A DNA stretch of 64,000 nt from an uncultured Coriobacteriales bacterium (GCA_934654475.1 CAKUFZ010000003.1:1811-65810); one strand, 5' to 3'; positions 16,849 to 33,900 are shown, counted from the stretch's first letter. Notes: generated by a model from the letters alone, not told the origin. A program made the numbers and translations.

Positions 16849-16854
16849 AGCGGT

Positions 16855-17526: not shown

Positions 17527-17550
17527 AGCGGGTTCCTCTCCTCTCAATAG

Positions 17551-17884
17551 TCATTCATGGGAGCGGGACGGACGGACAGCCCGCCCCGCGATCAGGTGAA
17601 ACAAAGAACCACGTGCTTTCAAACGGAGCGGCAGCTGCAAGGCGCGCGATGGCGCGGTGCGCGGTGCGGGCCTGTGGCCTACTGGAGTACATAAGCCTGA
17701 GCGCAACGCCGTAGCTGCGCCTCCGCGATCGGGTGAAACACTGGGCAACGCAAACTCAACGGGCCAAGCCGTCCGTTTAGACGGAGGCGCAGATACAAGG
17801 CGCGCGATGGCGCGGTGTACTGGAGTACATAAGCCTGAGCGCAACGCCGTAGCTGCGCCTCCGCGATCGGGTGAGACTCGGTCT
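17551..17884. repeat. Repeat family 2: about 2.3 tandem units (period about 138 bp) filling the DmsA/DmsB intergenic spacer
   Basis: Unit ends ccgcgatc(a/g)ggtga(a/g)ac at 17585, 17723 and 17861. A 57-bp block is identical at 17680-17736 and 17818-17874. Each unit is an imperfect palindrome (cggaggcgcag..ctgcgcctccg) centred on tactggagta. Confidence 0.85.
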
Positions 17885-20800
17885 CTACTCCTTGATCAGC
17901 GACTTACTCGTCTGCAAGCCGTTGACACCCGCGCGATAGTAGTTCATGCCCTCCGCTGCAGGATCAGCCGTGAGCCATTCCTTCAGGCGCGGGTCAGTGG
18001 ACTCCCAGATGACGGGGTTGCCGTCGGGGTCGCAAGGCACGGGGTTGCCGAAGGGCGAGTTCTCGGCCGTGGCCTTGTACACCACGCAGGGGATACCGCG
18101 CATCTGAGAGGCGCCGCAGATCCAGCACTGGGCGTACTTGTCGAGCGTGCAGTTGATGTTGACAAGCTCGAAGCCGTGGCTTGCGGTGTCGACCTCGGGG
18201 AACCACCAGCCGTGGTTGGCGTTGGTCGTGCCCTCCTTGATGCCGTAGTACAGGTCGATGACCTCGCGGACCTTGCCCCACGGAGTCTCAATCCACACCC
18301 AGTCGCCCTCTTCCAGACCAAGCTTGGCGGCGTCGGCGGGGTTCATCTCGAAGCGCGGGTAGGGCCACAGCTCGCGGCACCAGGGGAGCTGACGGTGCTC
18401 GGTGTGGAAGTAGACGGGCTGACGGGCACCGGTCGTCATGATGAAGGCGGCCTCGGGGTTGGCAGCAAGGGCGGCCTTGTAGCCTTCCTTGTTGATCATG
18501 TGCTCGTTCTCTTCCATCTTGCCGGCAACAGCCTGGTTCTCGCCGATCTGGTCGACCAGGGCTGCGTCGTAGAACTCCGGGTTGGCGATTTTGGAGTTCT
18601 GCGGCTCACGCCAGTGCGGGAACTTGTCCTCGTCGTCGATGTAGGACTCCATGATCGTGGACCAGATCTCCACCTTGGCGGTGGGGGTCATGAAGCCGGC
18701 CTTCTCGTCGACGGCGGGATACAGGTTGTAGCCACCCTCCTGACGACGATAGCCCATCTCCCAGCGGCGGTAGGTGCCCCAGCGCTCGGGATGGTACTTG
18801 CGGCAGTCGAACCAACCCTCTTCCTGGAACTTGGCGGCGTACTCCTCGAAGGTGGGGCCGTCGGGGAACTCGGGCGTCTTCCAAGCGTCGCAGGCAGCCT
18901 TCAGAACGCGGGCCTCCTGCTCCTCGTAGGACACGGTGCCGCCGCACTGGACGAAGTCCTCGACGTTGAGGTTGAGCCACTCGTCGTAGGCCGGGTCGGT
19001 GTTGTTGAACGGCACGCCCATGGCCTTGTAGAGAAGCACGACGAACACGGGGTCAAAGATGCACTCGCCCTCGGGCTGCTTGGCGCGCTGGCCGGCGCCG
19101 AAGACGCCGCCTGCACCCTGCGAGACGCGCGTGGTGTTGACCTCGAGCCAGTGCAGGCAGGGGAACACGACGTCGGCGCAGCCGTTGTTGGGGCAGCTCC
19201 ACAGGTTGATGTCAACCCAGAAGTCGAGCTTGGTGAGAGCCTCCCAGGCCTCGGTCAGGTTGGACTCGTTCATGAAGTCGCCCGACATGCACACGCCGGC
19301 GTGGATCTGGTAGGGCGTGTCGATCTCGTTGATGGAGTCCCAGATGGTGGCGGAGTCGGCCCAACGGTTCCAGTAGCGCAGCAGCGGGAAGCGCTCGGCA
19401 CTGATCTGCTTGGCGTTGCGCTCCCAGCTCGTCTTGGGGTTCGGCCAAGCGGTGGAGGGACGGTACGCGCCGCCCTTGCGCTCGGCGATCCAGCGGGCCT
19501 CCTCGTCGGTGGGGACCTTGTTGTCGTAACGCTCGGCCAGGGGCGAGTCGTTGTCGATCAGGTACTGGACGAAGTCCTGGATCTCGGGGATCTGGTCCTC
19601 GATGGACTTGTCACGACCCTCCCACGTGATGGCGTTCTCGCCGTAGTCGGTGGAAAGCATCGTGGCGCGGCCGGGGCAGCCGTCGACCTCAGCCTTGGAG
19701 GAACCGCGGTTGCCGGCAGGCTCGTCGGAGTTGCCCGTGATGCAGGCGATGATCTGCAGGGCGCGGGTGTTCTGGACGGCGTGGCCGGTCTGGTCGGGAG
19801 CGAGCTGGTAGTGGATGCCGCCGTTGCCCATGGCCGGGTCGATACGGGTCGTGTAGGTCTTCACGGCCTGCTCGATGAGCTCGGCCGGGACCTCGGTGAC
19901 CTCCTCGGCGTACTCAAGGGTGTAGGGCTCGAGGTTCTCGGCGAAGGCGTCCCACACGGTACGGGCGACATGCTTGCTGCCGTCCTTCCACGTGACCTCG
20001 ACCTCTCCCGGGAAGAGCGAAGGAAGCTTGGGCAGACCCTCGGGGTTGCACTCCTCGGAGCCGGCCGGGAAACGGTCGGGCTCGGTGGCGGGGTCGGCGA
20101 AGGTCGAGATGTCGGGCAGCCATGCGTCGGCGGCCAGCGGCTTGTAGGGATGCTCGACCCACATGCCGGTGGTGGGGATGCGATGCTCCTCGCCCTCCCA
20201 CTGGCAGGCCTCGGAGTCCCAGTAGGTGAGGCGCTCGTTGGCCTCGTCCCACACCATGAAGCGCTTGGGGGAGCCGTCCTCCTTGAGGTCGGCCTCGGTG
20301 AGCAGGCGGGTCCTCATGTGGATGCCGCCGTTCATCTCCATGAACCAAACGCCGTCGCCGGGCTCGCCCTCCTTCTCCTTGTCCTCGCACCAAAGGAACG
20401 GAGCGTTGGTCCAACGGCGCACGAAGGCGTCATCGTAGGCCTCGTTGTCGACGATCCACTTCAGCCAGGACAGCGACAGGCACAAGTCGGTGCCGACACG
20501 CAGGGGCAGCCAGATGGAGCTCTCCTTGCCCAGCGGGGTCAGACGCGGGTCGACCAGGATGTGGCAGGCAGCGTGCTGCGCAACGTCGGTGACGGTACGG
20601 TTGTTGGAGTCGTAGTTGGAGTACTCAGCGGCGGTGCCCCACTGCACGTAGACCTTGGGCTCAGCCTCGACCTCCATCCACGGGGAGCCGATCTCGTCGG
20701 TCAGGATGCCGCCGAAGTGACGCGGGCCCTTGCAGATCTCGTAGGCAAGGTGAGCGTTGGGCGTGCCGAAGACCTGCTTGAGGGTTCCGTAGGGAGCCTG

Positions 20801-21283
20801 GGTCCAAACGCGGGAGGTGCCGCCCATGGCGAAGACAGACTCGCCGCCGTACTTGTTGACGATCTCGGTGAGCTTCTCGCCCACGAGGTCGAAGCCCTCC
20901 TTGAGGGAGATGCGAACCCAGCCCGGATCGTCCTCGCCCTTGGGGTTGGTGCGCTTCATGGGGTAACGCAGGCGATCGGGGTGGTAGGCAGCCTGCATCG
21001 AAGCCTGGGACTTCGAGCAGCAGTGGCCGCGGCCGTGAGGCGTGGACTCGTCGCCCTCGACCTTGACGACCTTGCCGTCCTCAACGGTGACCCAAACGCC
21101 GCACTCGACCTTACCGCAGGCGCGGCAGGTGGAACGGATGCGCTTGACCTCGCCAGCGGTCTCGTCGGCACCCTCCGCGAGCGCCTTCATGGGCTCGGGG
21201 GCGCCCCCGGCCATGGCGCAGGCGGCGGCCGTGACGGCGGCGACCTTGACGAAGCTACGGCGGCTCATGCTGAGCTTGGCCAT
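17885..21283 (-). CDS. Tat-exported bis-MGD molybdopterin oxidoreductase catalytic subunit (DmsA-superfamily, unusually large)
   Basis: GAGAGGAG RBS. Twin-arginine signal MAKLSMSRRSFVKVAAVTAAA. N-terminal Fe-S motif CRACGKVEC..HCC. 1132 aa with molybdopterin-binding regions and a C-terminal beta-barrel region (..GDWVWIETPWGKV..). Confidence 0.85.
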   Translation of the reverse strand: MAKLSMSRRSFVKVAAVTAAACAMAGGAPEPMKALAEGADETAGEVKRIRSTCRACGKVECGVWVTVEDGKVVKVEGDESTPHGRGHCCSKSQASMQAAYHPDRLRYPMKRTNPKGEDDPGWVRISLKEGFDLVGEKLTEIVNKYGGESVFAMGGTSRVWTQAPYGTLKQVFGTPNAHLAYEICKGPRHFGGILTDEIGSPWMEVEAEPKVYVQWGTAAEYSNYDSNNRTVTDVAQHAACHILVDPRLTPLGKESSIWLPLRVGTDLCLSLSWLKWIVDNEAYDDAFVRRWTNAPFLWCEDKEKEGEPGDGVWFMEMNGGIHMRTRLLTEADLKEDGSPKRFMVWDEANERLTYWDSEACQWEGEEHRIPTTGMWVEHPYKPLAADAWLPDISTFADPATEPDRFPAGSEECNPEGLPKLPSLFPGEVEVTWKDGSKHVARTVWDAFAENLEPYTLEYAEEVTEVPAELIEQAVKTYTTRIDPAMGNGGIHYQLAPDQTGHAVQNTRALQIIACITGNSDEPAGNRGSSKAEVDGCPGRATMLSTDYGENAITWEGRDKSIEDQIPEIQDFVQYLIDNDSPLAERYDNKVPTDEEARWIAERKGGAYRPSTAWPNPKTSWERNAKQISAERFPLLRYWNRWADSATIWDSINEIDTPYQIHAGVCMSGDFMNESNLTEAWEALTKLDFWVDINLWSCPNNGCADVVFPCLHWLEVNTTRVSQGAGGVFGAGQRAKQPEGECIFDPVFVVLLYKAMGVPFNNTDPAYDEWLNLNVEDFVQCGGTVSYEEQEARVLKAACDAWKTPEFPDGPTFEEYAAKFQEEGWFDCRKYHPERWGTYRRWEMGYRRQEGGYNLYPAVDEKAGFMTPTAKVEIWSTIMESYIDDEDKFPHWREPQNSKIANPEFYDAALVDQIGENQAVAGKMEENEHMINKEGYKAALAANPEAAFIMTTGARQPVYFHTEHRQLPWCRELWPYPRFEMNPADAAKLGLEEGDWVWIETPWGKVREVIDLYYGIKEGTTNANHGWWFPEVDTASHGFELVNINCTLDKYAQCWICGASQMRGIPCVVYKATAENSPFGNPVPCDPDGNPVIWESTDPRLKEWLTADPAAEGMNYYRAGVNGLQTSKSLIKE

Positions 21284-21623
21284 ATCGTGCTCCTCTCTTC
21301 TTTCCTACATGACGTATGTGCTCGTGTGCATGCCGTGCCCCTGTGCGGGGAGGCTCGCGTCCTTGCACGCTTCCAGACTCTAGGGGCGCCGCACCTCTAC
21401 CCCCTCATTCCAACGGGTGGTTTTGGCTATTTGAGCGCTCTACACCAAACGGGATGATTGTGTCTGTGTGCGGATGGTCTATAACGTAACAGCAGGTACA
21501 TGGCTCATCTTGAAGTTGTTGGCATTATTGGGATACTCAAGTAGAATCATTCGGGGACAAACCGCGCGCCCACAGTCATGCCGGACGCGCAAAGCGGCAT
21601 ATGCCGCGGGACGGGGGGATTGG

Positions 21624-23294
21624 ATGGCACTGCGCATACCAAAGGTGAGCCTTCACGTGGAGGCAGCCGACGAGGGCGACTTGGGAGAGGTGCACGGCGA
21701 GGCCTTGGGCTTGGGCCTCATGCTTCTGCTTGCCCTCGACATGATGCTTGGAGGCGATCAGGGCTCAGGTGTCATGCCTGGCCTCATGCGCTACGCCTTC
21801 TGCGCGGCGGCCGCCGTCATGTTGCTCTGCGGCGCCCTTGTCGACAACCGCGTGCATGCGGTTTTCCGCACCTACAAGCCCGTTGTCGTCGCGATGGCGT
21901 TTTTCGTTCCCGGCGCCTTCTGCGGCATCGCCGGCGGCCACATAGACCCCTCGATGCAAACAGCGTTTCCGCTCATCGGCGGCATCTGCAACGGCCTGAG
22001 CATGGGCCTGTTCGTCTTTTTGTGGGGCATCAGCTTCGGGCGCCTGGGCCTGCGCGACATCACGCTGAACTCCGTGATCGGCGTGATCGGCGGCATCGGC
22101 GCCTATGTTCTGCTGCGAACCTTCCTGCCCGAGTCCCCTTTGCTGCATGCCGTCATCTCGCTTTTGCAGCTCGCCCACCTGGTGCTTCTGCGCACGCGCG
22201 TGACCGACCGCCTGCCCGACCCCGACATGCGCGAGAACACCTATTTCGCCGAACTCAAGGTCAAGCGTGGGTCGCTTGCGCTCGTGACGTTCCCCGCAAT
22301 GTTCTGCATGGGCCTGATTCTGGGCAACATCATCATGCATGCAGGCGTCATCATGAAGCCGCAGACGGGCCTTGTGGGGGCGCTTCTGTGCATCTTCCTC
22401 GTGCTTGTGGGAGGGGCGCTGGTGCTTGCGGTGTGCACGACCACCAGGCGACGCGACCAGTCGTTCGGCAGGGCATTTCACTCCATGGTGCCCATCATCG
22501 CCATTCTCATGCCGCCTTTGGCCCTCTCCGTCACCCAGGGCCTGTCTTTTGACAACCAGCTGCTGCTCATCAACTTCACCATCGTTGCCTCGATGGCATG
22601 GGCTTACCTGGGCTCGCTTGCCCAGGGCTTCCGCCTGTCGCCGGTGTTCCTGTTCGGCCTGGGACAGGGCGGCCTCGCACTGGGCTACGTGCTCGCCGCG
22701 CCTGTCAACGCGCTCGTCGCAAACACCATCGCCCAGAACATGCCGAGCAACGTGCTTGCCCTCGTAGTAAGCCTCATCGCGCTTGCAATCGCCAGCTCGC
22801 TGTTGCCGCGCCGCGAGGACATCATGGCCATCGTGGTGCACTCCTTCAAGCCGGCGGAGATGTGGGGCGCCGACGAGGAGGTCGAAGGCGCTCAGACTGG
22901 CGACGCCCAGACCGCACGGCAGGCCGGGGCCTGGGAGGCGGGGGCCGAGCGCGCGGGACGGCGCAACGACAACGCCATCCCCAAGAGCCACGGCGGCACA
23001 CCGTATGCCCAGCCCACGCCGCTGGCGGCCGCAGGCGCCGTCGCCGAGACCGACGAGGTGCGCAAGGGTCGCTTCGTGCGCCGCTGCGAGTACGTCGCCG
23101 ACACCTACCTGCTGTCGCGCCGCGAGACCGACGTGCTCTTCCTGCTGGCAAAGGGGCGCAACGTCGGCTACATCACCCAGCAACTCTGCATCTCCGAGGG
23201 CACCGCAAAGACGCACGTGAACCACGTGTACAAGAAATGCGGCGTGCATTCCCGCCAGGAACTCATCTGCCTCATCGACTCCTTCGACGCGTAG
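21624..23294 (+). CDS. Membrane-spanning LuxR-family transcriptional regulator
   Basis: Track ORF 21468..23294; the start at ATG 21624 (G-rich RBS) is preferred but uncertain. Multi-TM body plus LSRRETDVLFLLAKGRNVGYITQQLCISEGTAKTHVNHVYKKCGVHSRQEL. Divergent from the DmsA-like gene. Confidence 0.75.
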   Translation: MALRIPKVSLHVEAADEGDLGEVHGEALGLGLMLLLALDMMLGGDQGSGVMPGLMRYAFCAAAAVMLLCGALVDNRVHAVFRTYKPVVVAMAFFVPGAFCGIAGGHIDPSMQTAFPLIGGICNGLSMGLFVFLWGISFGRLGLRDITLNSVIGVIGGIGAYVLLRTFLPESPLLHAVISLLQLAHLVLLRTRVTDRLPDPDMRENTYFAELKVKRGSLALVTFPAMFCMGLILGNIIMHAGVIMKPQTGLVGALLCIFLVLVGGALVLAVCTTTRRRDQSFGRAFHSMVPIIAILMPPLALSVTQGLSFDNQLLLINFTIVASMAWAYLGSLAQGFRLSPVFLFGLGQGGLALGYVLAAPVNALVANTIAQNMPSNVLALVVSLIALAIASSLLPRREDIMAIVVHSFKPAEMWGADEEVEGAQTGDAQTARQAGAWEAGAERAGRRNDNAIPKSHGGTPYAQPTPLAAAGAVAETDEVRKGRFVRRCEYVADTYLLSRRETDVLFLLAKGRNVGYITQQLCISEGTAKTHVNHVYKKCGVHSRQELICLIDSFDA

Positions 23295-23351: not shown

Positions 23352-23370
23352 CCGACGCGGTCCAAACGAG

Positions 23371-23420
23371 AAAAGGCCGCCCGCACAAGCCGATTTGAAC
23401 GGCTGTGTGGGCGGCCTTTT
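23371..23420 (+). terminator. Rho-independent (bidirectional-looking) terminator
   Basis: aaaaggccgcccgcaca..tgtgtgggcggcctttt: a 13-bp stem with one G:T pair, A-run before and T-run after. Confidence 0.7.
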
Positions 23421-23587: not shown

Positions 23588-25366
23588 CTAGGGACGCAGG
23601 CCCAAGACGCTGGAACAGTACTGTTGGCCGCTCATGGTAGCCGGGGCCTCGGCTCCGAGGGCCTCGAGCGCCACCGTGGGTCGCAGGAGCGCGACCTGCT
23701 CCCCCGCCTCTGTGCGCGTACGGTGAAACGAGGCGCCCAAACGCCGCGCCGCCTCGGCGGGCATGCGCTGGATATACGAGACCACAAGCTCATCGGTGCA
23801 GCTAGACAGGGTCGAGCCGAGCTGTTTGACATCGGAGAGCCCTTCGTTGGCACCCAAGGCGACCACAAGGCGCGGGCGCACGCCCACAAGCGCATCGGGA
23901 CGGCAGATGTAGGCGCGCTTGTCCATGAGGGGCACGACCTCGCCGTGGACACGGGCGCCGTAGGCCTCGACAGGCGCCATGGCCAGGCCGGGTTCGAAGA
24001 CGCTGCGCTGGGCAACGGCGAAAAGACCGGCGGCGTCCAAGGCGACAAGGTCGTCGCCAAGCAGCGGGAACAGCTGGCGAAACGCCGGGGTCCTCGCCGG
24101 GTCGATGGCCTCAAGCAGGCGAAAGCCGCGCGGGGTGGCCGCACAGGCCTTGAAGAGCGTCTGCGCCTCATGGACGCGCGCTGCGAGCTGGCGTGCTCCG
24201 GAGAAGGGCGCATTGCCCGCGTCGACCTCGGCGCAGGTATCCCGCAACGCCTGGGCAATGCCCTTGCTCCCAGACGTCGCGTAGGCCTGGAGGTTTGCCC
24301 AGGCAGTCGCACCGAGGTCCGTGTAGCCCAGCGAGCACCAGGTGCGCCAGCTTGCCGCGTCATCCTCGTCGGCCAAAAGACCCAGGGCGGCAAAACAGCG
24401 CAAGGGGGCGCAACCTTTCGGATCGCGCGGGTCGCAGGCAAGGGGGCCGACGTAGGCCGTATCGCACACCTCGATGCCGGCATTCGCAAGCGACTGCGAG
24501 ATGCGGCGGGCCCACGGGCGGTTGGGCGGGACGAGAGCCACGGGGCCTTCGCCCACGCGTGCGCCGGATAGCACACGATCGGCAAGCGCAGTGATGCCCG
24601 CGGCCTCCTCAGCGGCATCGCCCCACTTCACAGCCTGAGAACGGGCCGCATTCATGCGGCGAGAGGGCTGGGGCAAAGCATGAACGCCTTCGGGACCCGC
24701 GAGGGAAAGAAACGCGCGCGGGTCGGCCGCATCCGCATCCGAGGCGCCTTTGCGATCGGCGTCGCCCACAAGGAAGAGACTTGCCTGGGCAAGACGTGCC
24801 ACAAGCCTCAAAGCCTCCGGGGGCACCGCGTCGGCGTCGTCGACGAGGACGTGGGCTACGGTCTGCCCGCCCTCCCCTGCTGCGGCAAGGCAAGCGCAAG
24901 CCTGGGCAACAAGGGACTCCGGCAGCACGGCATTGCGTGCGGCAAGGGCATCGAGCAGGGCTTTCAGGCAGGCGTCCTGCTCCTGCCCGTCAGAGGGCGC
25001 GCCATCCCCACTTGCCCACATGGCCACCGCCTGGGTCTGGGCGCATGCGATATCCTCGGCAGAGAAACCTGCCGCACGCAGGTCGGCAAGGAGAAGCGCA
25101 CGCTCCGTGGCACCGAGCACGCGTGGGGAGCCCGCGAGCTCGTGGACAAGCCTGCGCCAGGAGTCAACGCGGGGCGTGCGGCCCTCGCCAAGGTCGGCGA
25201 CAAGGCGTATTGCCAGCTCAAGGGCCCCATCGGCATTCGGCGTCACCACAAGCACGTCTGCGGGCACAGCACCGGCGTCCAACACGTCATGCACGTGCGC
25301 GACAAGCGCCCGCGTCTTGCCCGAGCAGGCACCGCCCGTCAGGACCTCGACCTTGGGGGCGCTCAT
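23588..25366 (-). CDS. UvrD-like P-loop NTPase, degenerate helicase motifs (second of a pair)
   Basis: Track ORF trimmed to ATG 25366, 2 nt after the upstream stop. Walker A GGACSGKT. The motif II position reads VLVDDADA instead of DExx. UvrD-like C-terminal half (..VALVPPNRPWARRISQSLANAGIEV..). No nuclease domain seen. Confidence 0.6.
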   Translation of the reverse strand: MSAPKVEVLTGGACSGKTRALVAHVHDVLDAGAVPADVLVVTPNADGALELAIRLVADLGEGRTPRVDSWRRLVHELAGSPRVLGATERALLLADLRAAGFSAEDIACAQTQAVAMWASGDGAPSDGQEQDACLKALLDALAARNAVLPESLVAQACACLAAAGEGGQTVAHVLVDDADAVPPEALRLVARLAQASLFLVGDADRKGASDADAADPRAFLSLAGPEGVHALPQPSRRMNAARSQAVKWGDAAEEAAGITALADRVLSGARVGEGPVALVPPNRPWARRISQSLANAGIEVCDTAYVGPLACDPRDPKGCAPLRCFAALGLLADEDDAASWRTWCSLGYTDLGATAWANLQAYATSGSKGIAQALRDTCAEVDAGNAPFSGARQLAARVHEAQTLFKACAATPRGFRLLEAIDPARTPAFRQLFPLLGDDLVALDAAGLFAVAQRSVFEPGLAMAPVEAYGARVHGEVVPLMDKRAYICRPDALVGVRPRLVVALGANEGLSDVKQLGSTLSSCTDELVVSYIQRMPAEAARRLGASFHRTRTEAGEQVALLRPTVALEALGAEAPATMSGQQYCSSVLGLRP

Positions 25367-25368
25367 GG

Positions 25369-26436
25369 CTAAGCCCACGTTCCAGCAACACTGTCGAGCG
25401 TGCGTACGATGCCATCGGCCAGACGCACGTCCCACATCGTGTAATCCAGGCTCCCCAGGTTGTCGCTTGCGTGCTTCAGACGCGCAGGAGCCTCGGGTTC
25501 GGCAGGCTGCTCCCCACCTGCGGGAACATCCTTTCCTGCAGACTCGACACTATCGGCGGACACAGCATCCTCAGCAGGCTGCTCAGCCGCATCGTCGCAG
25601 GCAGATTGTTTGTCACCCGCGAGCCTGAGGCTCTCGGCAGGGGTAGCCTGAGCCTCGGCGGCCTCAGCAGGGGCGGCCTGGGCCTCGGCAGACTTAACAG
25701 GGGCGGCTTGGGCCTCGCCGTTCTCGCCATCCACAGGCTCGGCCTTGGCCTGGGCAGCCTCTCCCTCGGCGGCCTCATCAGCCTGCGTACCGGCGCTCTT
25801 GCCAGCAGCCATCTCGCTCTTGCCAGCAGCCATCTCGCTCTCGCCGGCAGCCTCACCGACAGCTGGCTCGCCCTCGCCAGCGGCCTCCGCTGCAGCGGCG
25901 GCCTCAGCCTGCACGCGGGCCTTCTCAACCTGCTCGGCCAGGCTTACGGCGGCAGGTGCCTCGATGCCCGCCATGTCGGCAGGCAGAACGCCCTGGGCAA
26001 GCAGCTCGCGCACGCGACTGGCAACGGCCACCACGTCGGGCAGCTCGTCGCCCTGCGCGCAGGCGATGCCGAAAGCGTAAGGCTTCATGTCGAGCTCGAC
26101 GCGGTCATAGGAAACCGTCTGATGCCCCGCCTCGCTGCGCGACTTGTTGAAGTTGGCGATGGTGGAGGCAACCTTGTACGCCTTTGCCTCAAGCCAGGTG
26201 CGCATGGCGTCCCACATCTGGTCGCCCTCGCCTTCGCTCGTCCAATACGGCCTGCTCATGCGGCAAATGAGGCGCATCTCGTTGTTCACGGGGGCCTCAG
26301 GCACGCAAGGCTCGTGCGAGACCACCGTGATGGGGCCCACGTAGGCAAAGGAGCGCTTGATGTCGGCCGCAACGTCGGCGTTGTGCTCGCGGGAGTCAAG
26401 GCTGACCTTTTCGATGAGGGAGGGATGGATGAGCAT
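25369..26436 (-). CDS. Hypothetical protein: about 150-aa N-terminal globular domain plus a long Ala/Glu/Gly-rich repeat region
   Basis: Track ORF trimmed to ATG 26436 (GGAGAC upstream). The disordered region contains SEMAAGK x2, encoded by a perfect 21-bp tandem at 25797-25838, and AEAQAAP-type repeats. Confidence 0.6.
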   Translation of the reverse strand: MLIHPSLIEKVSLDSREHNADVAADIKRSFAYVGPITVVSHEPCVPEAPVNNEMRLICRMSRPYWTSEGEGDQMWDAMRTWLEAKAYKVASTIANFNKSRSEAGHQTVSYDRVELDMKPYAFGIACAQGDELPDVVAVASRVRELLAQGVLPADMAGIEAPAAVSLAEQVEKARVQAEAAAAAEAAGEGEPAVGEAAGESEMAAGKSEMAAGKSAGTQADEAAEGEAAQAKAEPVDGENGEAQAAPVKSAEAQAAPAEAAEAQATPAESLRLAGDKQSACDDAAEQPAEDAVSADSVESAGKDVPAGGEQPAEPEAPARLKHASDNLGSLDYTMWDVRLADGIVRTLDSVAGTWA

Positions 26437-26655
26437 GGAAGTCTCCAATCTTGCAGGGGTGCGCAGCGGAAACACCGACGCACACCCCCGCGTCAATCCG
26501 GTGATAAACAGGCGCGGCAAGGCGCCCAAAGATGCGTTCGAGCACTGTCGAAAACGCCCCAGGCGGTGAGCAGGCAGGCTTTTCAGCATCCACCATTACA
26601 ACGGCGCAGGTAGAAAGCGCGCTCAATGAGGCCGCCTGTACTCGATTGCTGTTTT

Positions 26656-28680
26656 CTAGGCGTTGACGCGCGCCGGGGTGAAGTCCTTCAACAGGGAGCC
26701 GCTCGGAAGCGGAGCCAGACCCCAAGCGTGCAGCGCGTAGGTGAGCAGGTCGCTGGGGCGAACGGTGGTCGTGCGCTTCCCGTCGGCACCCATGGCAACC
26801 TTGTAGCCCTTGAGATGGGTGCGCTCGGCAAGTTCCAGGTCACAGCGAGCAAAGCCGGTAAACACAAGGTCGCCCGTGGCGCATGAAGCAAGGCGGTACA
26901 TGTCCGCGCGAGCCCGTGCGTCCAAGGCGGCGCGGGCGTCGAAATCGGCCTCTGCCAGGTCGAAGTAGGCATGGTCGGGCATCCAGCCATTCATGAGGCC
27001 GCACACCACAACGTGGGTCGCCTTAAGGGCGCTCGCCTGGTCGTACATTGCAACCCTCACAGCGCCGGGCTTGGAAACTCCACCCTGCGCAAGCGCCTGA
27101 GCACAGGCGAGAAGCCCAGCCGCCCCGGCGTCTTCGCCCGCGACGGCGTCGGCAACCAGGCCAGCGTACACGGAAGGCACCGCCTCCATGCCCAGACCCT
27201 CGGCCAGGCGCGCAAGCAGCTCGAAGCCATGCAGGGCGACCAGCTCGTCGATCATCGCACGGCCCTGGCGGTACGCCACAAGCGTCGATTCCTGACCGGG
27301 AACCTCGGGGGCCTCACCTGCGTCAAGCAAACCGAGCGCCTCGCCCAGACCGATGCCGCGCTGCCGGGCAAGTTCCTCGATGCCAGTGAAGATGTTGCTT
27401 CGGGCCAGGTAATCGCCGCAACCGCACCAGCAGCGCCATGCCAGCGAGTCATTGGGGTCGGCAAGCAGCGCCAGCGCGGTGTACATGCGGCCCGTGCGGC
27501 ACGCGTCCAGGTCGCGGAAGGAGCCACCCGCCACGCGGCGGCCGTCGTGCTCCTCAAGGGCGACGCCCTTCTCACGCAGGGCACGGCAGACACGACCGAA
27601 CCACGCGCGGTTGGGGGCAAGCACACAGATGTCGGCAGGGTCGGCACCCTCCTCGACAAGGCCAGCGACCCAGGATGCGACACCCGCGACCTCCTCATCG
27701 GGGCCGGCATAGACAAGCTGCGACACGCCCTCGACGGGCTGGGCGGCAGCGGCAACATCGTAGGCCTGCGCCGTCTCGACCTTGCCCCTGCTCTCGACAA
27801 GGCCAAGCGAGAGCGCGTCAAGATAGCCGCTCGAGGCAAGCTGAGAGGCGGCAGCGGCCGCTCCGGTCGCAGGCGCCGCAAGCTCAACCGCGACAAAATC
27901 GGGGTTGCGCTGGCCAAACTCCGCGATACCGGCCGGGTAAGGGAAGGGGTCGGCGCCCTGGCGATCGAGCGTCTCATCGGCAAAGGCCCACAGCGTTGCA
28001 GGCTTGAGCAGGTCAAACAGAATCTGGCTTGCGCGATTCAGGCAATGGTAGTCGTCGACCACGATGTGACGCACGCCGCAGGCATCCGCCATCTCGGGGT
28101 GGGCGCGCAGGCAGCGCACGGCAAGGTTCGAGACCTCGCAGTCGAGGATTGCGTCGTAGGCACCCAGGTGACGGTAAAGCGCGTCGAGCACGGCCTGCTC
28201 GCGCGGGTCGATGATGAAGCTCGCCATGTCGTCGTCGGCAAGCTCGGTCAGGCTCTTGCGGAAGAAGCCGAGCATGCCCTTGAGGCGACGCGCCGGCACA
28301 CCCGTGGCGCGCATGTCCTCGAGCAGAAACGACTCCTCAAAGTCGCACAGCACATGAGGACGACGGCCGACGACGGCGCGAGCCTCAGGCATGACGAGAA
28401 GCGCAAGCTCGAAGTCGCGTGCCGTGCAGACGCGCACACCCTGCGCGGATTCGCCCAGCTCACCTGCCATGTCACGGGCAGCTGTGGACGTGGGGGCAAC
28501 AACGAGAATCTCCCCTGCAGGCACACCGGCCTCAAGAAGGTCGCGCACGTGGGCGCAGGCCAGCGAGGTCTTGCCGGAGTTGGCGACGCCACGCACAAGC
28601 ACGCGAGCGGTGTCGGCCGCAGGGACGGCGCAAGCCGCTTCAGAGGCGCAGGAACGAGAGCAAGTAGAATCAATAGCCAT
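26656..28680 (-). CDS. UvrD-like P-loop NTPase, degenerate helicase motifs (first of a pair)
   Basis: ATG 28680 with AAAGAGG RBS, 13 nt after the Fe-S gene stop (alternative GTG 28689). Walker A GVANSGKT; motif Ia VVAPTSTAARDM; motif II position HIVVDDYH; motif IV-like ICVLAPNRAWFGRVCRALREKGV; C-terminal ..THVVVCGLMNGWMP. Confidence 0.65.
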   Translation of the reverse strand: MAIDSTCSRSCASEAACAVPAADTARVLVRGVANSGKTSLACAHVRDLLEAGVPAGEILVVAPTSTAARDMAGELGESAQGVRVCTARDFELALLVMPEARAVVGRRPHVLCDFEESFLLEDMRATGVPARRLKGMLGFFRKSLTELADDDMASFIIDPREQAVLDALYRHLGAYDAILDCEVSNLAVRCLRAHPEMADACGVRHIVVDDYHCLNRASQILFDLLKPATLWAFADETLDRQGADPFPYPAGIAEFGQRNPDFVAVELAAPATGAAAAASQLASSGYLDALSLGLVESRGKVETAQAYDVAAAAQPVEGVSQLVYAGPDEEVAGVASWVAGLVEEGADPADICVLAPNRAWFGRVCRALREKGVALEEHDGRRVAGGSFRDLDACRTGRMYTALALLADPNDSLAWRCWCGCGDYLARSNIFTGIEELARQRGIGLGEALGLLDAGEAPEVPGQESTLVAYRQGRAMIDELVALHGFELLARLAEGLGMEAVPSVYAGLVADAVAGEDAGAAGLLACAQALAQGGVSKPGAVRVAMYDQASALKATHVVVCGLMNGWMPDHAYFDLAEADFDARAALDARARADMYRLASCATGDLVFTGFARCDLELAERTHLKGYKVAMGADGKRTTTVRPSDLLTYALHAWGLAPLPSGSLLKDFTPARVNA

Positions 28681-28693
28681 GTCGGGCACCTCT

Positions 28694-29932
28694 TTAGCGC
28701 TCGTAGAGCTGGTCGCAATGGATAATCTTCTTCAAGGCGCTGAGCATCGTGTGGGGGCCTCCCCGCCTGTCGCGCACGCGGGGCATCTCGAAGCTCTCGG
28801 TGACGCATCCGCCGGCAACCTCGCTGGAAAGGACGTCCTCGTACAGGGTGAGGGCGTCGGTGGGGCACACGTCGGTGCAGCAGCGGCACTTCACGCAGTC
28901 GGCGGGGCGATGCTCAAGCACGACGTCGCCGTCTTCCCCCTCCACCTTGGCAATGGCGCCGGTGGGGCAGAAAGTGGCACACATGAGGCAGCCCTTGCAG
29001 CGCGCGACGTCGATGCTCACGCGACCCCACAGGCGCGTCTCGATCGCAGCCTCGGCGGGATCGCCGAGCTCAGCCAGGGCATCGAGCAGGCGCTCGCGAC
29101 GGTCAGGCAGAAAGTGGGGCAGTGTGCCGTCGAGCATCGCCTTGAGGGACCCGGATGCCTGGTCGGCACCAACACCCGCTAGCCCATCGTCACCCTCGCC
29201 CCGCTCGCCCACACGCGCCTCTTGCTCGTCCTGGGGAACAAGCATGCCCGCAACCGTGTCTCCCACCTGGGAAAACACCTCACGGCGCAAGCTGTCGAAA
29301 CCAGGGCCGACCTGCATGGGACGCTCATCGGCCTCAGCCAGGCGCACGCAGCGCGGCAGCTTCTCGCGCACCTCGACGCGCGTCGGGCTCCCCCAGGTCT
29401 CAAGCAGCAGGTTCGCGTTGTCCACGACCTCGGCGTAGGTGTGCATGCCCGGAGAGCGCGGGCAGCACTCGCAGGGACCGTGCGCCAGCAAGACGCGCTT
29501 GGCGCCACGCGCCGCCGCGTCAACGAGCAGCGACTCCTCCACGCGCCCCAAGCACGTCACATGCACGGCACGGTCGGCGTCGATGGCGTCGGCGTTGCGA
29601 CGCCACAGGGAGTCGCAGGCCACGACGAGCGTGTCGCCGCAGGCCTCGAGCGCCTTGTGGGCGCGCACCGCAAGCTCGGCGTCGGCCGGGTGGCGAGCCT
29701 CCAAAGCGCAGGTCGGGCACACCGTGGCGCACGTGCCGCAGCCAACGCACAGGTCGGGGTCGACGTTGACCGCACCGTCCTCCACGCTGATGGCCCCCGA
29801 CGTGCACGCCTGCGCGCAACGCATGCAGCTCGCGTGGCGATTGCGCACCACGACGCAGCGGTACGGGTACACGTTGAGGTCGGCGCTCTGCAGGCGCGCA
29901 AGCAGCGCAGCAGCCGAATCGACCTTAGCCAT
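28694..29932 (-). CDS. Cytoplasmic 4Fe-4S dicluster domain protein (two ferredoxin-like modules separated by a Cys-containing middle domain)
   Basis: Track ORF trimmed to ATG 29932, giving an 8-nt overlap with the NapH-like stop. CMRCAQAC..CVGCGTCATVCP at the N-terminus and CKGCLMCATFCP..CVKCRCCTDVCP at the C-terminus. No signal peptide. Confidence 0.75.
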   Translation of the reverse strand: MAKVDSAAALLARLQSADLNVYPYRCVVVRNRHASCMRCAQACTSGAISVEDGAVNVDPDLCVGCGTCATVCPTCALEARHPADAELAVRAHKALEACGDTLVVACDSLWRRNADAIDADRAVHVTCLGRVEESLLVDAAARGAKRVLLAHGPCECCPRSPGMHTYAEVVDNANLLLETWGSPTRVEVREKLPRCVRLAEADERPMQVGPGFDSLRREVFSQVGDTVAGMLVPQDEQEARVGERGEGDDGLAGVGADQASGSLKAMLDGTLPHFLPDRRERLLDALAELGDPAEAAIETRLWGRVSIDVARCKGCLMCATFCPTGAIAKVEGEDGDVVLEHRPADCVKCRCCTDVCPTDALTLYEDVLSSEVAGGCVTESFEMPRVRDRRGGPHTMLSALKKIIHCDQLYER

Positions 29933-31103
29933 CCTCACGCACCCCCTCGCACTCATGAGCCTGCCTGGCAGATGCGCCAGCCTTGGGCAGGAACGGGACG
30001 GAAATCGCATGCGCCGGGCACGCCTCCACGCAGGCGCGGCACTTCACGCACTCGTTGATGGCCACGGGGCTCTCGGCGAGGTTGCGCAGGTCGATGCCCT
30101 CAGGGCACGCCGTATGGCAGCGCCCGCAATGCGCACCGCGCGTCTCCTCCAGGCACATGTCCCTGTCAATCGTGGGCACGAACGTGCGGTTGCCCTTCGA
30201 CACGAGCGACATGAGGGCACCGAGCGGGCAGATGCGGTGGCACCACTTGCGGGCAAGGAACAGCTCGGCGATGAGCAGGGCGGGCACCACGAGAAGCGCC
30301 CAGGAAACGGAGCCGCCGAACAGCCTCAGTACCAGGAAGATGGTGGCGAAGGTGAGGCCAATAGGGCAGATGAGGCAAAACACCGGGAAGCCGAACACGG
30401 CGGCGGACAGAAGCGTGCCGCCCAGCACGAAATGACGGCTGTCGACGGCCTTGCCGCGCGCCTTGGCGCAGCCCGAGCAACCCTGCGAGCAGGAACCCTT
30501 CTCCTTGCCGACCGCAACCTTGCGGCCACCCTCGCAGTCGCCGTCGCGCAGACCCAAGATGCGCTCGACAAAGGGCACCGAGCAGATCCACGAACAGAAA
30601 GCGCGGCCGAACAACAAGATGAGCGCCAGGGCGATGACAAGGCTGATGAGTACGCGCGGCACGAGCATCTTGCTCGCAAGCAGGCTCGAAAGCGCACCCA
30701 TGGGGCAGATGGCCGAAATGGACTCCCACCCGAACGCCGAGATGTTGCCCAGCGGCACCATGGCGACGAAGGCAACGGCGCATACGAGCAGCACGAGGGC
30801 CGGCAGGGCACGACGGAACTTCGTGAGGCTGCCGCCGCGCTTCTCGCCCGGCTGGGGCTTGTAGCTGGCACGCTTGGCTTTGGACGCAGGAACTTCCCCG
30901 TCTGCAGCGGGCTTGCCTGTGACTGCAGATTGAGGCTTGTAGCTGGCGCGCTTCTCCTTGGATGCCGCGGGTCCCTCGACCTCGGCAGGCTCGCCCGCGG
31001 ACATCGCTTGGGGCTTGCAGCTAGCACGCTTGGCCTTCTTGGCGGGCGCGTCAGACCCGGCACCGCCTGCAGACTGCGGCTTGTAGCTCTTTTTCTTCTC
31101 CAT
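29925..31103 (-). CDS. NapH/MauN-type integral-membrane Fe-S protein (polyferredoxin-like) with a basic repeat N-terminal tail
   Basis: 4 TM helices carrying CP motifs (ICPMG, CSWIC, CLICPIG, RICPLG). C-terminal 2x CxxCxxCxxxCP-like clusters (CGRCHTACP, CVKCRACVEACP). The N-terminus has 4 copies of K(R/K)(A)S(Y/C)KPQ. Confidence 0.8.
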   Translation of the reverse strand: MEKKKSYKPQSAGGAGSDAPAKKAKRASCKPQAMSAGEPAEVEGPAASKEKRASYKPQSAVTGKPAADGEVPASKAKRASYKPQPGEKRGGSLTKFRRALPALVLLVCAVAFVAMVPLGNISAFGWESISAICPMGALSSLLASKMLVPRVLISLVIALALILLFGRAFCSWICSVPFVERILGLRDGDCEGGRKVAVGKEKGSCSQGCSGCAKARGKAVDSRHFVLGGTLLSAAVFGFPVFCLICPIGLTFATIFLVLRLFGGSVSWALLVVPALLIAELFLARKWCHRICPLGALMSLVSKGNRTFVPTIDRDMCLEETRGAHCGRCHTACPEGIDLRNLAESPVAINECVKCRACVEACPAHAISVPFLPKAGASARQAHECEGVREDG

Positions 31104-31107
31104 GGCC

Positions 31108-31743
31108 CTACACCTCCCCCGCCTCGTCGACGTTCACGATGATGATTGCCCTGTGCGCCGTGCCGCTCACCATGGAGCCGGCGCGCATCGAGGGGCACAC
31201 GTACTCGCAGGCACCGCAGCCGTTGCATTTCTCCAGGTCGAGGTGCGGGCGCTTCGCGTCGTCGAGCGTGATGGCGTCGAGCTCGCAGGCGTCGTAGCAG
31301 TCGCGGCAGCGCGTCATGCGATAAGCCAGGCACCAGTCGTGCGTGAGCAGCGGTTTGCCGATGACCACGTCGCGCCTCTTCGCGCCCTCGTCGAGACGCA
31401 AGGCACCGGTGGGGCAGGTGAGCACGCAGCGAGGATGCCCGTCGTTTTCCTCCTCGCAGAAGTCGCACCAGCCGGAATGAAAGTCCATCCTCGGCGTGCG
31501 CAGGTTGAGGAAGCCGTCCTCGATGCTTGCCGGCGAGATCGCCTTGCGCGGGCATGCCTCGAAGCAACGTTGGCAACGCACGCACAGCGACAGCAGCCTC
31601 GCGTCGTCCTGACCGCCCGGCGGGCGCAGCACATCGTCGGCAGGCAGGCAGGTGGCAAGTGCGCCCAACCCGAGCGAGCCTGCCACACAAGCTAGGCCAA
31701 CAACGGCGTTTCGCCTGGTCACGCCCTTCTTTTCTTCATCCAT
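31108..31743 (-). CDS. NapG/MauM-type Tat-exported ferredoxin
   Basis: Track ORF 31108..32178 trimmed to ATG 31743 (GGAGGAG RBS). Signal MDEEKKGVTRRNAVVGLACVAG. Four Cys clusters (CVRCQRCFEACP, C..C..CP, CRDCYDAC, CNGCGACEYVCP). 4 nt before the NapH-like start. Confidence 0.8.
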   Translation of the reverse strand: MDEEKKGVTRRNAVVGLACVAGSLGLGALATCLPADDVLRPPGGQDDARLLSLCVRCQRCFEACPRKAISPASIEDGFLNLRTPRMDFHSGWCDFCEEENDGHPRCVLTCPTGALRLDEGAKRRDVVIGKPLLTHDWCLAYRMTRCRDCYDACELDAITLDDAKRPHLDLEKCNGCGACEYVCPSMRAGSMVSGTAHRAIIIVNVDEAGEV

Positions 31744-31892: not shown

Positions 31893-32594
31893 CTAGGCGG
31901 CCTGGGCGCCGTCGAGCAGCTCGGCGAGAAACTCGCCCTCGGTCTGCACGAAGCCCAGCGTGAGCTCGGCCAGACCGCGATACAGCTCGGTCTCGGAGAA
32001 GCGCAGCATGTCGGCCACGAGCATGGGAACCCAGTTGGCCAGGTGCTCGGCCACAAAGTCGCGCTGTGTGGTGAGCATCTCGACCGCGGCGTCCTCGTCG
32101 CCCTTGCGAAGGGCAGCAGCGGTGCGCTGGCACATCACCTGCATGAACTCGAGCTCGACGGCAATGTGGTCCTCGCACTCGCGCCAGCGCTCGTCCTTCT
32201 TGAGGTTGTTGGCGCGGTAAACCGCCAGAACCTCGGCGCGGGCCTGCTGCATCATGAGGCGCTTCTCGGAGGTATGCACCGACTCGTAAGGGTAGGCGGC
32301 GGAGTGGCCGTTTACGCCGTGGCCGATGAAGACGCGCACGTAGTCGCGGGCAAGGTCAAGCAGAGCCGGCTCCCAGACGCTCGTGAGATAGCGGTGCATA
32401 AGCTCGTATCCGGTGTCGACGTGGGCGTTGCCCGTGTTCTCAGGAAACGTCATGCTGCGCAGCTGGGTGAGCAGGGGGCCGTCAACCTCGACGCGGAACA
32501 GACGCGCAAGCAGGCCGTAGGTGTCAGCGCGGCCGTCCATGGCGCTGGCGAGCTCGGCGAGTTCAGGGGAAACGACGGGTGCGGATGCGGTCAT
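31893..32594 (-). CDS. TorD/DmsD-family redox enzyme maturation chaperone
   Basis: Track ORF trimmed to ATG 32594 (AAGGAGAG RBS). ..RADTYGLLARLFRVEVD..DYVRVFIG..PYESVH..DHIAVELEFM.. is the TorD-family pattern. Confidence 0.75.
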   Translation of the reverse strand: MTASAPVVSPELAELASAMDGRADTYGLLARLFRVEVDGPLLTQLRSMTFPENTGNAHVDTGYELMHRYLTSVWEPALLDLARDYVRVFIGHGVNGHSAAYPYESVHTSEKRLMMQQARAEVLAVYRANNLKKDERWRECEDHIAVELEFMQVMCQRTAAALRKGDEDAAVEMLTTQRDFVAEHLANWVPMLVADMLRFSETELYRGLAELTLGFVQTEGEFLAELLDGAQAA

Positions 32595-32704
32595 GGTCTC
32601 TCTCCTTAGGTGGGAATGCACGGGGAATGTACGTGGGCTGTAGGACTGCGCGGTAAAGTTCGCGCAGGGCAAAAATCAACTCGGGCGCCGAAATCGGATG
32701 CGGG

Positions 32705-33544
32705 CTACTCGGCTGCGATGCCGTGCTTCTCAAGGTAGCGACGGCCCAGCTCGGTTGCGTTCCAACCACCGTCATGCCAGCTCAGAGCCTCGCGGTTCTC
32801 AAGAAGCTCGATGAAGTGGTTCGAGTAGCGGCGAGGCTTCTGCACGAGCGGGTCGTCGTCGACGATGGCGTCAATCTGGGGCTTGGTGCGAGGCTCCTGC
32901 GCGCAGAAGGCAAGCACGCGCTCATACACGGGCAGGTAGACGCTCTCGGTGTCGCTTGCGAGCAGCTCCTCAAGCGCCGACCCCTCGCGATGGGCGGCAA
33001 GCACCGTGAGGCCCTCGTCGGTAGAGGTCCAGTACGTCGTGGGATGCGCGGCAGCCTCACCGGCCTCAGGCTCTCCGTCGGCGCGCTCATCGGCAGACTG
33101 GCCACCCTGCTCCTCGGGAGCCTGCGGCTCCTCGGTGCGGCTCACGAGGGCGCCGGCGCGCTCAAGGATGGAGCACAGCGACTGGGGCGTGTAGACCGAG
33201 CGGTTCTCCGCCTGGGCCTGCTCCACGAGCTGGGCGACCTCCTCGCTCGTATGCTCGTCGCAGCAGAACTCGATGATTTGCAGGAAGACCGGCTTGCGGC
33301 CGGGGTTGCGGTGCAGCAGCTCCTCGATGGCGTCCTGGGCGTTGGCGAAGCGGTCCTTGTCGAAGACGCTCTTGACCTTTACCTCTTCGGGCATCTCCGC
33401 CATGACCGGCAGGTCTACGATGCCGTCCTCGTCGGGATCGGCGCCGTCCTGCGCGGGCTCGAAGTCCTCGGCCAGCGGGTCGAACACGCCTTCGTCCTCA
33501 TCGAGGAAAAACTCGTCCAAGTTCTCTTGTGCCATCTTTTCCAT
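32705..33544 (-). CDS. Hypothetical protein (acidic N-terminus, two similar helical repeats)
   Basis: ATG 33544 (or 33535) after GGAGAGGGTGG. GC3-rich, 279 aa. First gene after the terminator at 33858-33900. No family recognised. Confidence 0.55.
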   Translation of the reverse strand: MEKMAQENLDEFFLDEDEGVFDPLAEDFEPAQDGADPDEDGIVDLPVMAEMPEEVKVKSVFDKDRFANAQDAIEELLHRNPGRKPVFLQIIEFCCDEHTSEEVAQLVEQAQAENRSVYTPQSLCSILERAGALVSRTEEPQAPEEQGGQSADERADGEPEAGEAAAHPTTYWTSTDEGLTVLAAHREGSALEELLASDTESVYLPVYERVLAFCAQEPRTKPQIDAIVDDDPLVQKPRRYSNHFIELLENREALSWHDGGWNATELGRRYLEKHGIAAE

Positions 33545-33857: not shown

Positions 33858-33900
33858 ACAAAAGGGGGCCGAATCGCATGTGCGATCCGGCCCCTTTCTC
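33858..33900 (-). terminator. Rho-independent terminator of the upstream flavoprotein gene
   Basis: 14-bp stem ggggccgaatcgca/tgcgatccggcccc with 1 mismatch. The minus strand reads hairpin plus CTTTTGTGTG. Confidence 0.7.

Follow-up and report, generated by a model that had tools for sequence, protein, structure and literature searches.

In a 64,000-nt stretch of DNA from an uncultured Coriobacteriales bacterium (GCA_934654475.1, CAKUFZ010000003.1:1811-65810; hereafter the window, in whose coordinates all positions are given), the genes for two helicase-like proteins, A and B, and for a third protein, M, that separates them close an eight-gene minus-strand unit (33544 to 23588) with the order X, TorD-like, NapG-like, NapH-like, polyferredoxin, A, M, B. 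We conclude that A and B are very probably UvrD-fold pseudo-helicases of the family of DadhD, a helicase-like accessory protein of Eggerthella lenta, and that they serve as cluster-specific accessory factors for the catechol-dehydroxylase-type molybdopterin reductases of Eggerthellaceae, which are exported by the twin-arginine translocation (Tat) system. The A-M-B locus is a variant of this recently described accessory family; the A-M-B arrangement, the second paralogue B, M and the evidence for loss of the motor are new relative to the published account, which describes neither M, nor B, nor their arrangement (PMC11887054).

Fold and motif states of A and B

A (26656–28680, minus strand) is 674 aa long when translated from its ATG and 677 aa from an upstream GTG, and B (23588–25366, minus strand), its faster-evolving paralogue, is 592 aa long. 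The original prediction, made from the DNA sequence before the present analysis, had noted Walker A motifs (GVANSGKT in A, GGACSGKT in B), a divergent motif II (VVDDYH and LVDDAD, respectively), a UvrD-like 1A/2A architecture and the absence of a nuclease domain from both proteins, and all of these features are borne out. A also carries the elements xRASQ and WRCWCGCGDY. An AlphaFold2 model of A, built on an alignment of 23 family sequences, has a predicted local distance difference test score (pLDDT) of 87.6 and a predicted template modelling score (pTM) of 0.87. Its best Foldseek match is E. coli UvrD with DNA (2is1/2is6; E = 1e-27, template modelling score (TM) 0.61–0.66), and the next best are D. 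radiodurans UvrD, PcrA and Rep. The corresponding model of B (pLDDT 80.2) matches UvrD and PcrA with TM 0.65–0.68 (E = 1e-19 against UvrD). Both proteins are predicted to adopt the full four-domain (1A/1B/2A/2B) UvrD/PcrA fold; in the models they begin at strand 1 and the P-loop of domain 1A, without the secondary-channel-inserting N-terminal coiled coil or the specific clamp-opening domain of HelD.

Other helicase classes match less well. Chains of AddAB, AdnAB and RecB stand lower in the Foldseek lists (TM ~0.4–0.5 for the A model), no HelD chain occurs among the top 50 matches of either model, and HelD-type matches in NCBIfam are limited to negligible ones to helicase IV. The missing domains and the Foldseek ranking rule out orthology to AddAB, AdnAB or HelD. 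Pfam and NCBIfam match A and B solely at the P-loop region, at or under threshold (AAA_19 and UvrD-helicase at the N-terminus of B). A and B are distant paralogues, sharing 29% identity over 136 aa by BLASTP, and a hidden Markov model (HMM) of the A family matches B over its full length with 130 bits. This profile spans residues 13–659 of the 674 in A, and residues 4–206 and 243–569 of the 592 in B, and therefore leaves no room for a nuclease domain; neither a PD-(D/E)XK nuclease nor any other added domain was found in A or B with Pfam, the models or the profile coverage.

The motif states were read from a profile alignment to PcrA (1pjr) and from a table of 124 A/B-like open reading frames (ORFs). 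Motif I (Walker A) is retained by most members of the family and by all B homologues, and motif II has DD[YF] in place of DE. Motif III (GDxDQSIYxWRGA) has become ADx..GADPFPY or DSYPY, motifs IV (NYRS) and V (TLHxxKGLEF) are lost, and the TRA of motif VI is replaced by CAT or GKA. Among 98 distinct sequences the Walker A motif and the DD pair are at least 90% conserved, and it is domain 1B, not the ATPase core, that is conserved best; xRASQ, WRCWCGxGDY, MNGWxPxHAYFD and a block in domain 1B are the conserved elements specific to the family. In several lineages neither Walker A nor the DD pair survives, although the family-specific motifs do, and the P-loop is missing at five of the loci compared (L023, L115, L077, L084 and L085), where xRASQ and WR[CAS]W[CF]GFGDY remain. 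A true-helicase relative (P0052, locus L007; 25% identity) has all motifs intact, with DEYQD at motif II, and is without redox neighbours.

Judged by these motifs, A and B probably still bind nucleotide, because the Walker A motif and the DD pair persist in at least 90% of members, and they are predicted to be unable to translocate on nucleic acid, because the Glu of motif II, the Gln and aromatic residues of motif III, the Arg of motif IV, the whole of motif V and the Arg of motif VI are gone. The helicase-like protein is strongly acidic (net charge −29); a comparison of isoelectric points was non-discriminating. For A and B, PADLOC returned solely sub-threshold P-loop matches and PHROG none. 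Defence systems (Gabija GajB, and DISARM-, Hachiman- or DRT-associated proteins) were rejected on these sub-threshold matches and on the context, a respiratory reductase cluster, and a phage origin of A and B was rejected for want of any PHROG match.

Relationship to the accessory genes of E. lenta

A 2025 study in JACS described the accessory genes that accompany dopamine dehydroxylase (Dadh) in E. lenta (PMC11887054). They encode DadhD, a helicase domain-containing protein (Elen_0475); DadhE, a hypothetical protein; DadhF, which is TorD-like; DadhG and DadhH, which are NapG- and NapH-like; and the ferredoxin DadhI (PMC11887054). In a Gordonibacter host dadhD to dadhH are all indispensable, whereas dadhI is dispensable; the Dadh protein is abolished solely by deletion of dadR or dadhD, and is present but inactive when any of dadhE to dadhH is deleted (PMC11887054). 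Comparable accessory sets go with Hcdh and Cadh; the Cadh set, known to be required when taken together, cannot substitute for the Dadh set, and the sets are cluster-specific. At least five dehydroxylases that differ in their regulation depend on a single E. lenta accessory set (PMC11887054). The authors suggested that DadhD works on the DNA of the locus or on its mRNA (PMC11887054). The original prediction had called the linkage of UvrD-like proteins to redox genes unexpected, a judgement that is dated because the linkage was reported in that 2025 study.

We drew E. lenta-type contigs from gut metagenomes with an E. sinensis homologue and searched them for the primer sites given in PMC11887054; the primer patterns were not found in the first 87 loci. 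On L097 and L108, two of these contigs, the genes for polyferredoxin, X, TorD, NapG, NapH and A are flanked by primers oXD1663 and oXD1664 and make up the Cadh accessory amplicon. The last gene of this amplicon is a 612-aa A-family ORF whose stop codon the reverse primer overlaps, and homologues of X and of the polyferredoxin sit inside it. On three further contigs (L104, L105 and L109), oXD1831 and the genomic parts of oXD1846 and oXD1847 lie directly 5′ of an A-family ORF, and the dadhD deletion junction coincides with the ATG of that ORF. The primer-linked A-family ORFs score 620–700 bits against the A-family HMM, with the E. lenta Cadh-cluster protein, named "UvrD-helicase domain-containing protein" by NCBI, at ~700. 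The N-terminus of dadhD aligns with the A family and reads EHDASDDV where its relatives have GGVGTGKT; DadhD apparently lacks a P-loop. Neither M nor B was found in the E. lenta loci examined.

Conservation of the linkage to reductase genes

Homologues of A were found solely in Coriobacteriia, chiefly in Eggerthellaceae, and come from the genera Senegalimassilia, Slackia, Eggerthella, Gordonibacter, Adlercreutzia, Rubneribacter, Parvibacter and Curtanaerobium. There are several A-family paralogues per genome, each in a reductase cluster with genes for a molybdopterin oxidoreductase and a LuxR-family regulator. A is 96–97% identical to proteins of uncultured gut Coriobacteriales metagenome-assembled genomes, the exact A, M and B sequences are present in public assemblies at the same lengths, and a search with the A-family alignment gave the same ~55 proteins as a single-sequence search. 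Seven contigs labelled Alistipes, Acutalibacteraceae, Butyrivibrio, Eubacterium, Anaerovoracaceae or Hallerella (L013, L021, L030, L036, L047, L065 and L087) show typical Eggerthellaceae synteny and are probably mis-binned.

The window proteins were mapped on 87 loci, and counts were taken from 61 species-representative loci with at least 4.5 kb upstream of A. X and the TorD-like gene lie directly upstream of A on the same strand in 57/61 loci, so that the linkage of A to redox genes is strongly conserved. Within 10 kb of A, the TorD-like gene is found in 60 of the 61 loci, the polyferredoxin gene in 48, NapG together with NapH in 44, a molybdopterin oxidoreductase also in 44, LuxR in 38, M in 32 and a second A/B-like gene in 18. 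The smallest clusters consist of the molybdoenzyme gene, X, TorD and A. This redox linkage persists at 28–35% identity and is gone for the true-helicase relative. The order polyferredoxin, A, M, B does not vary within the window's clade; elsewhere the polyferredoxin gene pairs with M or with a B-like gene in a separate, often divergent unit. The placement of LuxR seen in the window, convergent with B and divergent from the reductase operon, recurs in L001 and L008–L015. At one distant locus (L004:11946-13783) the place of M and B after the A homologue is taken by a 319-aa protein with a Pfam Trigger_C match (trigger-factor C-terminal, chaperone-like) and a 293-aa protein without match.

The accessory proteins diverge far faster than the enzyme. 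At locus L001, identity to the window protein is 91% for the molybdenum-containing catalytic subunit, 73% for the TorD-like protein, 57% for X, 50% for A, 48% for M, 40% for LuxR and 30% for B. Across L001, L013 and L015 the catalytic subunit is 85–94% identical and the accessory proteins fall to 30–70%. This contrast points either to very rapid evolution of the accessory genes or to an exchange of enzyme genes from one lineage to another. With an E. lenta enzyme whose gene adjoins the Cadh accessory genes, the catalytic subunit shares 66% identity.

Organization of the accessory and reductase operons

The gene run was picked out by codon-position GC in the window, whose base composition is ~65% G+C. 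Immediately upstream of the accessory genes lies a minus-strand flavoprotein gene (33943–35622; 559 aa, Tat signal, FAD_binding_2, of the fumarate-reductase-like type common in Eggerthellaceae). It ends in a strong intrinsic-terminator-like hairpin (33865–33894, minus strand; 13-bp stem with 10 GC pairs, followed by a T-tract), which, from its sequence, appears to mark the 5′ boundary of the accessory operon. The first gene encodes X (32705–33544, minus strand), an acidic protein of 279 aa without Pfam match that is the counterpart of E. lenta DadhE. It is followed on the same strand by a DadhF-like redox-enzyme maturation chaperone of the TorD/NarJ family (31893–32672; Pfam Nitrate_red_del, E = 9e-36; start codon uncertain) and by a DadhG-like, NapG-type ferredoxin with a twin-arginine motif (31108–31743; NCBIfam NapG/MauM, E = 2e-18, under the curated cut-off), whose ORF has a high third-position GC content (GC3 = 0.84) only in the part 31108–31743. 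Next come a DadhH-like, NapH-type membrane ferredoxin (29925–31103, minus strand; NCBIfam NapH, E = 5e-22, under the curated cut-off; Pfam Fer4_5) and a cytoplasmic polyferredoxin (28694–29932, minus strand; Pfam Fer4 domains and FlpD) with an MvhD/FlpD-like middle domain, the probable counterpart of DadhI. The N-terminus of the NapH-like protein (30800–31103, minus strand) carries four copies of K(K/R)xS(Y/C)KPQ in a Lys/Ala/Ser-rich extension of ~95 aa that precedes the membrane domain.

The junctions around A, M and B are tight at two of three points, as originally described. The polyferredoxin gene stops with TAA (28696–28694) and is followed directly by the ribosome-binding site AGAGG and then the ATG of A at 28680, a gap of 13 nt (28681–28693), and M stops with TAG (25371–25369) 2 nt before the ATG of B at 25366. 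The gap between A and M measures 219 nt. By terminator scan and direct reading, the eight-gene unit has a strong terminator at either end and none in between; the scan's other matches inside it are weak and low-ranked, with 5–7-bp stems, several of them within the coding sequences of A and B, and the scan found no terminator between the polyferredoxin gene and A. A sigma-70 promoter scan returned zero sites in the whole of this GC-rich DNA and hence is silent on an internal promoter. With no orthology to AddAB or HelD, no terminator ahead of A and conserved synteny, the grouping of A, M and B with the redox genes stands.

Downstream, a bidirectional intrinsic terminator (23364–23420, minus strand) separates B from the convergent LuxR gene; it consists of GGCCGCCCACACAGCC ... 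GGCTTGTGCGGGCGGCC and then TTTTCTCGTTT, and was read directly from the sequence, the terminator scan having detected only part of it. The LuxR-family regulator (21468–23294, plus strand; Pfam GerE) is convergent with B and divergent from the three-gene reductase operon (15943–21283, minus strand), which is proposed to be under a LuxR-type regulator. The reductase operon encodes a Tat-signal catalytic subunit with molybdenum bis(pyranopterin guanine dinucleotide) (Mo-bisPGD) (17885–21283, minus strand; Pfam Molybdopterin, Molydop_binding, Molybdop_Fe4S4, TAT_signal), a 4Fe-4S subunit (16855–17550, minus strand; Pfam Fer4_11) and a putative membrane subunit (15943–16854, minus strand).

The M protein and the A-M insertion

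M (25369–26436, minus strand), the 355-aa middle protein, has the N-terminal domain and Ala/Glu-rich stretch ascribed to it originally, and gives no sequence match in Pfam or the PDB. Alignments divide it into an orphan N-terminal domain of ~175 aa, a hypervariable Ala/Glu linker and a conserved C-terminal motif of ~25 aa, DYxxW..ADGxVRxxD. The linker contains tandem repeats (25633–25918; 30 nt × 2.8, 21 nt × 2.8 and 18 nt × 2), and M is 307, 327, 342, 355 or 360 aa long among near-identical strains. An exhaustive phmmer search gave ~156 cluster representatives of M, all ~200–320 aa in length and with the domain at the N-terminus; hhalign shows no relation between M and X.

The 219-nt gap between A and M is due to a strain-variable insertion of ~195 nt (26440–26650, minus strand). 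The window, L008 and L011 carry it; the close relatives L009 and L010 do not, and A and M are separated there by 26 nt. The insertion has a 13-bp GC hairpin at its end, just 5′ of the M ribosome-binding site, and a fold z-score of −2.16. Candidate identities as a repeated mobile element and as a known RNA were rejected, the insertion being unique among the sequences compared and without an Rfam match.

Proposed function and alternatives

We propose that X, the TorD-like, NapG-like and NapH-like proteins, the polyferredoxin, A, M and B form one accessory operon serving the adjacent reductase operon, with A and B as its DadhD-type members, helpers without which the reductase would not accumulate, and assign this explanation as a whole a probability of roughly 0.55. 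The original suggestion of an ATPase pair recruited to Fe-S or redox-complex biogenesis pointed in the right direction, as shown by the co-location with TorD, NapGH and molybdoenzyme genes and by the genetic requirement for DadhD (PMC11887054); its redox-complex part holds, while Fe-S biogenesis is a less apt description than molybdoenzyme expression or maturation.

For the mechanism, we tentatively favor a post-translational one, at somewhat less than even odds. A and B would act in the cytoplasm, with X and the TorD-like chaperone, as nucleotide-gated, non-translocating adaptors or holdases that stabilise the new apo-catalytic subunit while it awaits its cofactor and export by Tat. An A-M-B assembly would do this job in the window's clade, and the C-terminal peptide of M, on its flexible linker, may dock onto a partner. 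We favor such a role because the tightest linkage is to X and TorD, because members without a P-loop exist, and because absence of the protein is a classic phenotype of a missing chaperone, as in the TorD and DmsD systems. A bolder form of the same idea, which we regard as doubtful, holds that a superfamily 1 (SF1) helicase fold was exapted for protein work and that A-M-B and DadhD-type proteins are all nucleotide-gated holdases or adaptors. Beside X and the TorD-like protein, they would hold on to the molybdoenzyme in its unfolded or cofactor-free state, or to its Tat signal region; the client would bind at the conserved surfaces of 1B and 2B, and the tethered C-terminal peptide of M would be a regulatory plug.

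Several points weigh against the holdase/adaptor reading and its premises. The substitution of Asp for the catalytic Glu reduces ATPase activity and need not abolish it. The alignment behind the B model combines B with A-family sequences, and the loss of the P-loop from DadhD is read from no more than its first ~130 residues. The three contigs that carry the dadhD junction (L104, L105 and L109) are probably assembly chimeras across a long near-identical repeat, although they may instead be real recombinants: they have the dadS/dadhD junction and the 5′ end of dadhD, continue as the Cadh-cluster paralogue from about residue 130, are of low coverage, and their Cadh-like stretch, which has 1 mismatch in 1473 nt in L104, runs on into the downstream LuxR gene, with the 620-aa form on one contig only. 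The fast divergence of A beside a 91%-conserved catalytic subunit argues against tight co-evolution of the two. Finally, the Dadh protein is absent from the dadhD deletion and inactive in the dadhE–dadhH deletions, a pattern that a role in transcription or on the mRNA would fit as well as protection from proteolysis does.

Such a role is nearly as likely as the holdase/adaptor mechanism. A and B would then bind the DNA of the locus, its mRNA or RNA polymerase, perhaps together with LuxR. Transcription, or else the stability or translation of the mRNA, would depend on them, and the inactive helicase scaffold would act as a recognition module. Relatives of UvrD, PcrA and HelD bind RNA polymerase, and AddB and RecC show that an inactive helicase fold can be used to read sequence. 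The UvrD fold of A and B counts in favor of this explanation, as does the conservation of Walker A and the DD pair in at least 90% of members. The residues that stack on single-stranded DNA (ssDNA) and couple ATP to translocation, however, are missing, some members have no P-loop at all, and the strongly acidic character of the protein (net charge −29) is a further, weak argument against contact with nucleic acid. Gene neighborhoods speak on both sides. Genes for A or B often adjoin LuxR (in the order LuxR-A-molybdoenzyme in L067, L070, L072 and L075), B or A is convergent with LuxR in the window, L001, L008–L015 and the E. lenta loci, and A diverges at about the rate of LuxR; yet the linkage to X and TorD (57–60/61) is tighter than that to LuxR (38/61). 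The genetic data are similarly divided, in that deletion of dadhD phenocopies deletion of dadR, with no Dadh protein, whereas a single E. lenta accessory set serves at least five dehydroxylases that are differently regulated (PMC11887054).

A third possibility, an ATP-coupled module of the polyferredoxin and A/B that would power or gate the supply of low-potential electrons, or a reductive activation, for the NapGH-like chain or the molybdoenzyme, is very improbable. The translational coupling of the polyferredoxin to A, its frequent co-transcription with M or a second A/B-like gene in other clades and the Walker A motif of all B homologues would suit it. A and B, however, lack the cluster-binding Cys motifs typical of ATP-driven reductases, and a helicase fold is not known for such activases; members without a P-loop exist, many A clusters have no polyferredoxin nearby (it is present in 48/61), and dadhI is dispensable while dadhD is essential and affects protein level (PMC11887054). 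An ordinary repair or recombination pair of the AddAB, AdnAB or HelD kind, or an anti-phage helicase, placed beside redox genes by chance, is effectively refuted, and with it the helicase machine for repair, defence or RNA remodelling first entertained: two adjacent SF1 paralogues do resemble the AddAB/AdnAB layout, and chains of both appear low in the Foldseek lists, but A and B have no PD-(D/E)XK nuclease or extra domain, their catalytic motifs are degenerate, PADLOC and PHROG gave no matches of note, the paralogues of a genome each lie inside a reductase cluster, and the closest true-helicase relative has no redox linkage.

Implications

Eggerthellaceae carry dozens of such molybdenum reductases, which act on dopamine, dietary polyphenols and lignans in the human gut, and to our knowledge these enzymes cannot be made in standard hosts without accessory genes. 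To what was known of the latter, the present analysis adds a motor-dead UvrD fold, a near-universal tie to X and TorD, fast evolution, and the occurrence of B and M in many genomes. These points narrow the possible mechanisms and have practical weight for the expression of gut-microbial molybdoenzymes. If A and B do act on proteins, they represent a new use of the helicase fold; if they act at the level of nucleic acid, they represent a new class of cluster-specific expression factor.

Comparison with known systems

The E. coli nap, tor and dms sets (NapD/TorD/DmsD, NapF, NapGH) resemble the window's operon in providing a dedicated chaperone, NapG- and NapH-type ferredoxins and a cytoplasmic polyferredoxin for a Tat-exported Mo-bisPGD enzyme; unlike the window's operon, they have no helicase-fold protein and no counterparts of X or M. 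AddB and RecC share with A and B an SF1 helicase fold that is stripped of its motor motifs and has been put to new use as a scaffold or for recognition, and AddB also retains Walker A and has a paralogous subunit encoded nearby, as A and B do, separated only by M. In contrast to AddB and RecC, A and B lack both a nuclease domain and the Fe-S cluster domain of AddB, neither of the two resembles a working motor, the structural similarity is lower (TM ~0.4–0.49), and nothing links them to DNA-break repair.

UvrD, PcrA and Rep are the closest structural relatives, with the four-domain fold matched over the whole length (TM 0.61–0.68), a Walker A motif, a motif Ia-like TxxAA, an acidic pair at motif II, similar length and no added domains. 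Identity to them is only 16–19%; A and B differ in the DD pair, in motifs III–VI, which are not conserved, in the loss of the ssDNA-stacking aromatic residues, and in their context, a redox-enzyme accessory operon instead of repair or replication. DadhD and its Hcdh and Cadh paralogues in E. lenta belong to the same family: the Cadh-cluster protein shares DD[Y], xRASQ and WRCWCGFGDY, and the neighbors are the same, namely DadhE-like, TorD-like, NapG- and NapH-like proteins, a polyferredoxin, a Mo-bisPGD enzyme and LuxR. Unlike the DadhD N-terminus, A has a P-loop, and, unlike in the E. lenta sets, the window's helicase-like gene sits after the polyferredoxin gene and is followed by M and the second paralogue, B.

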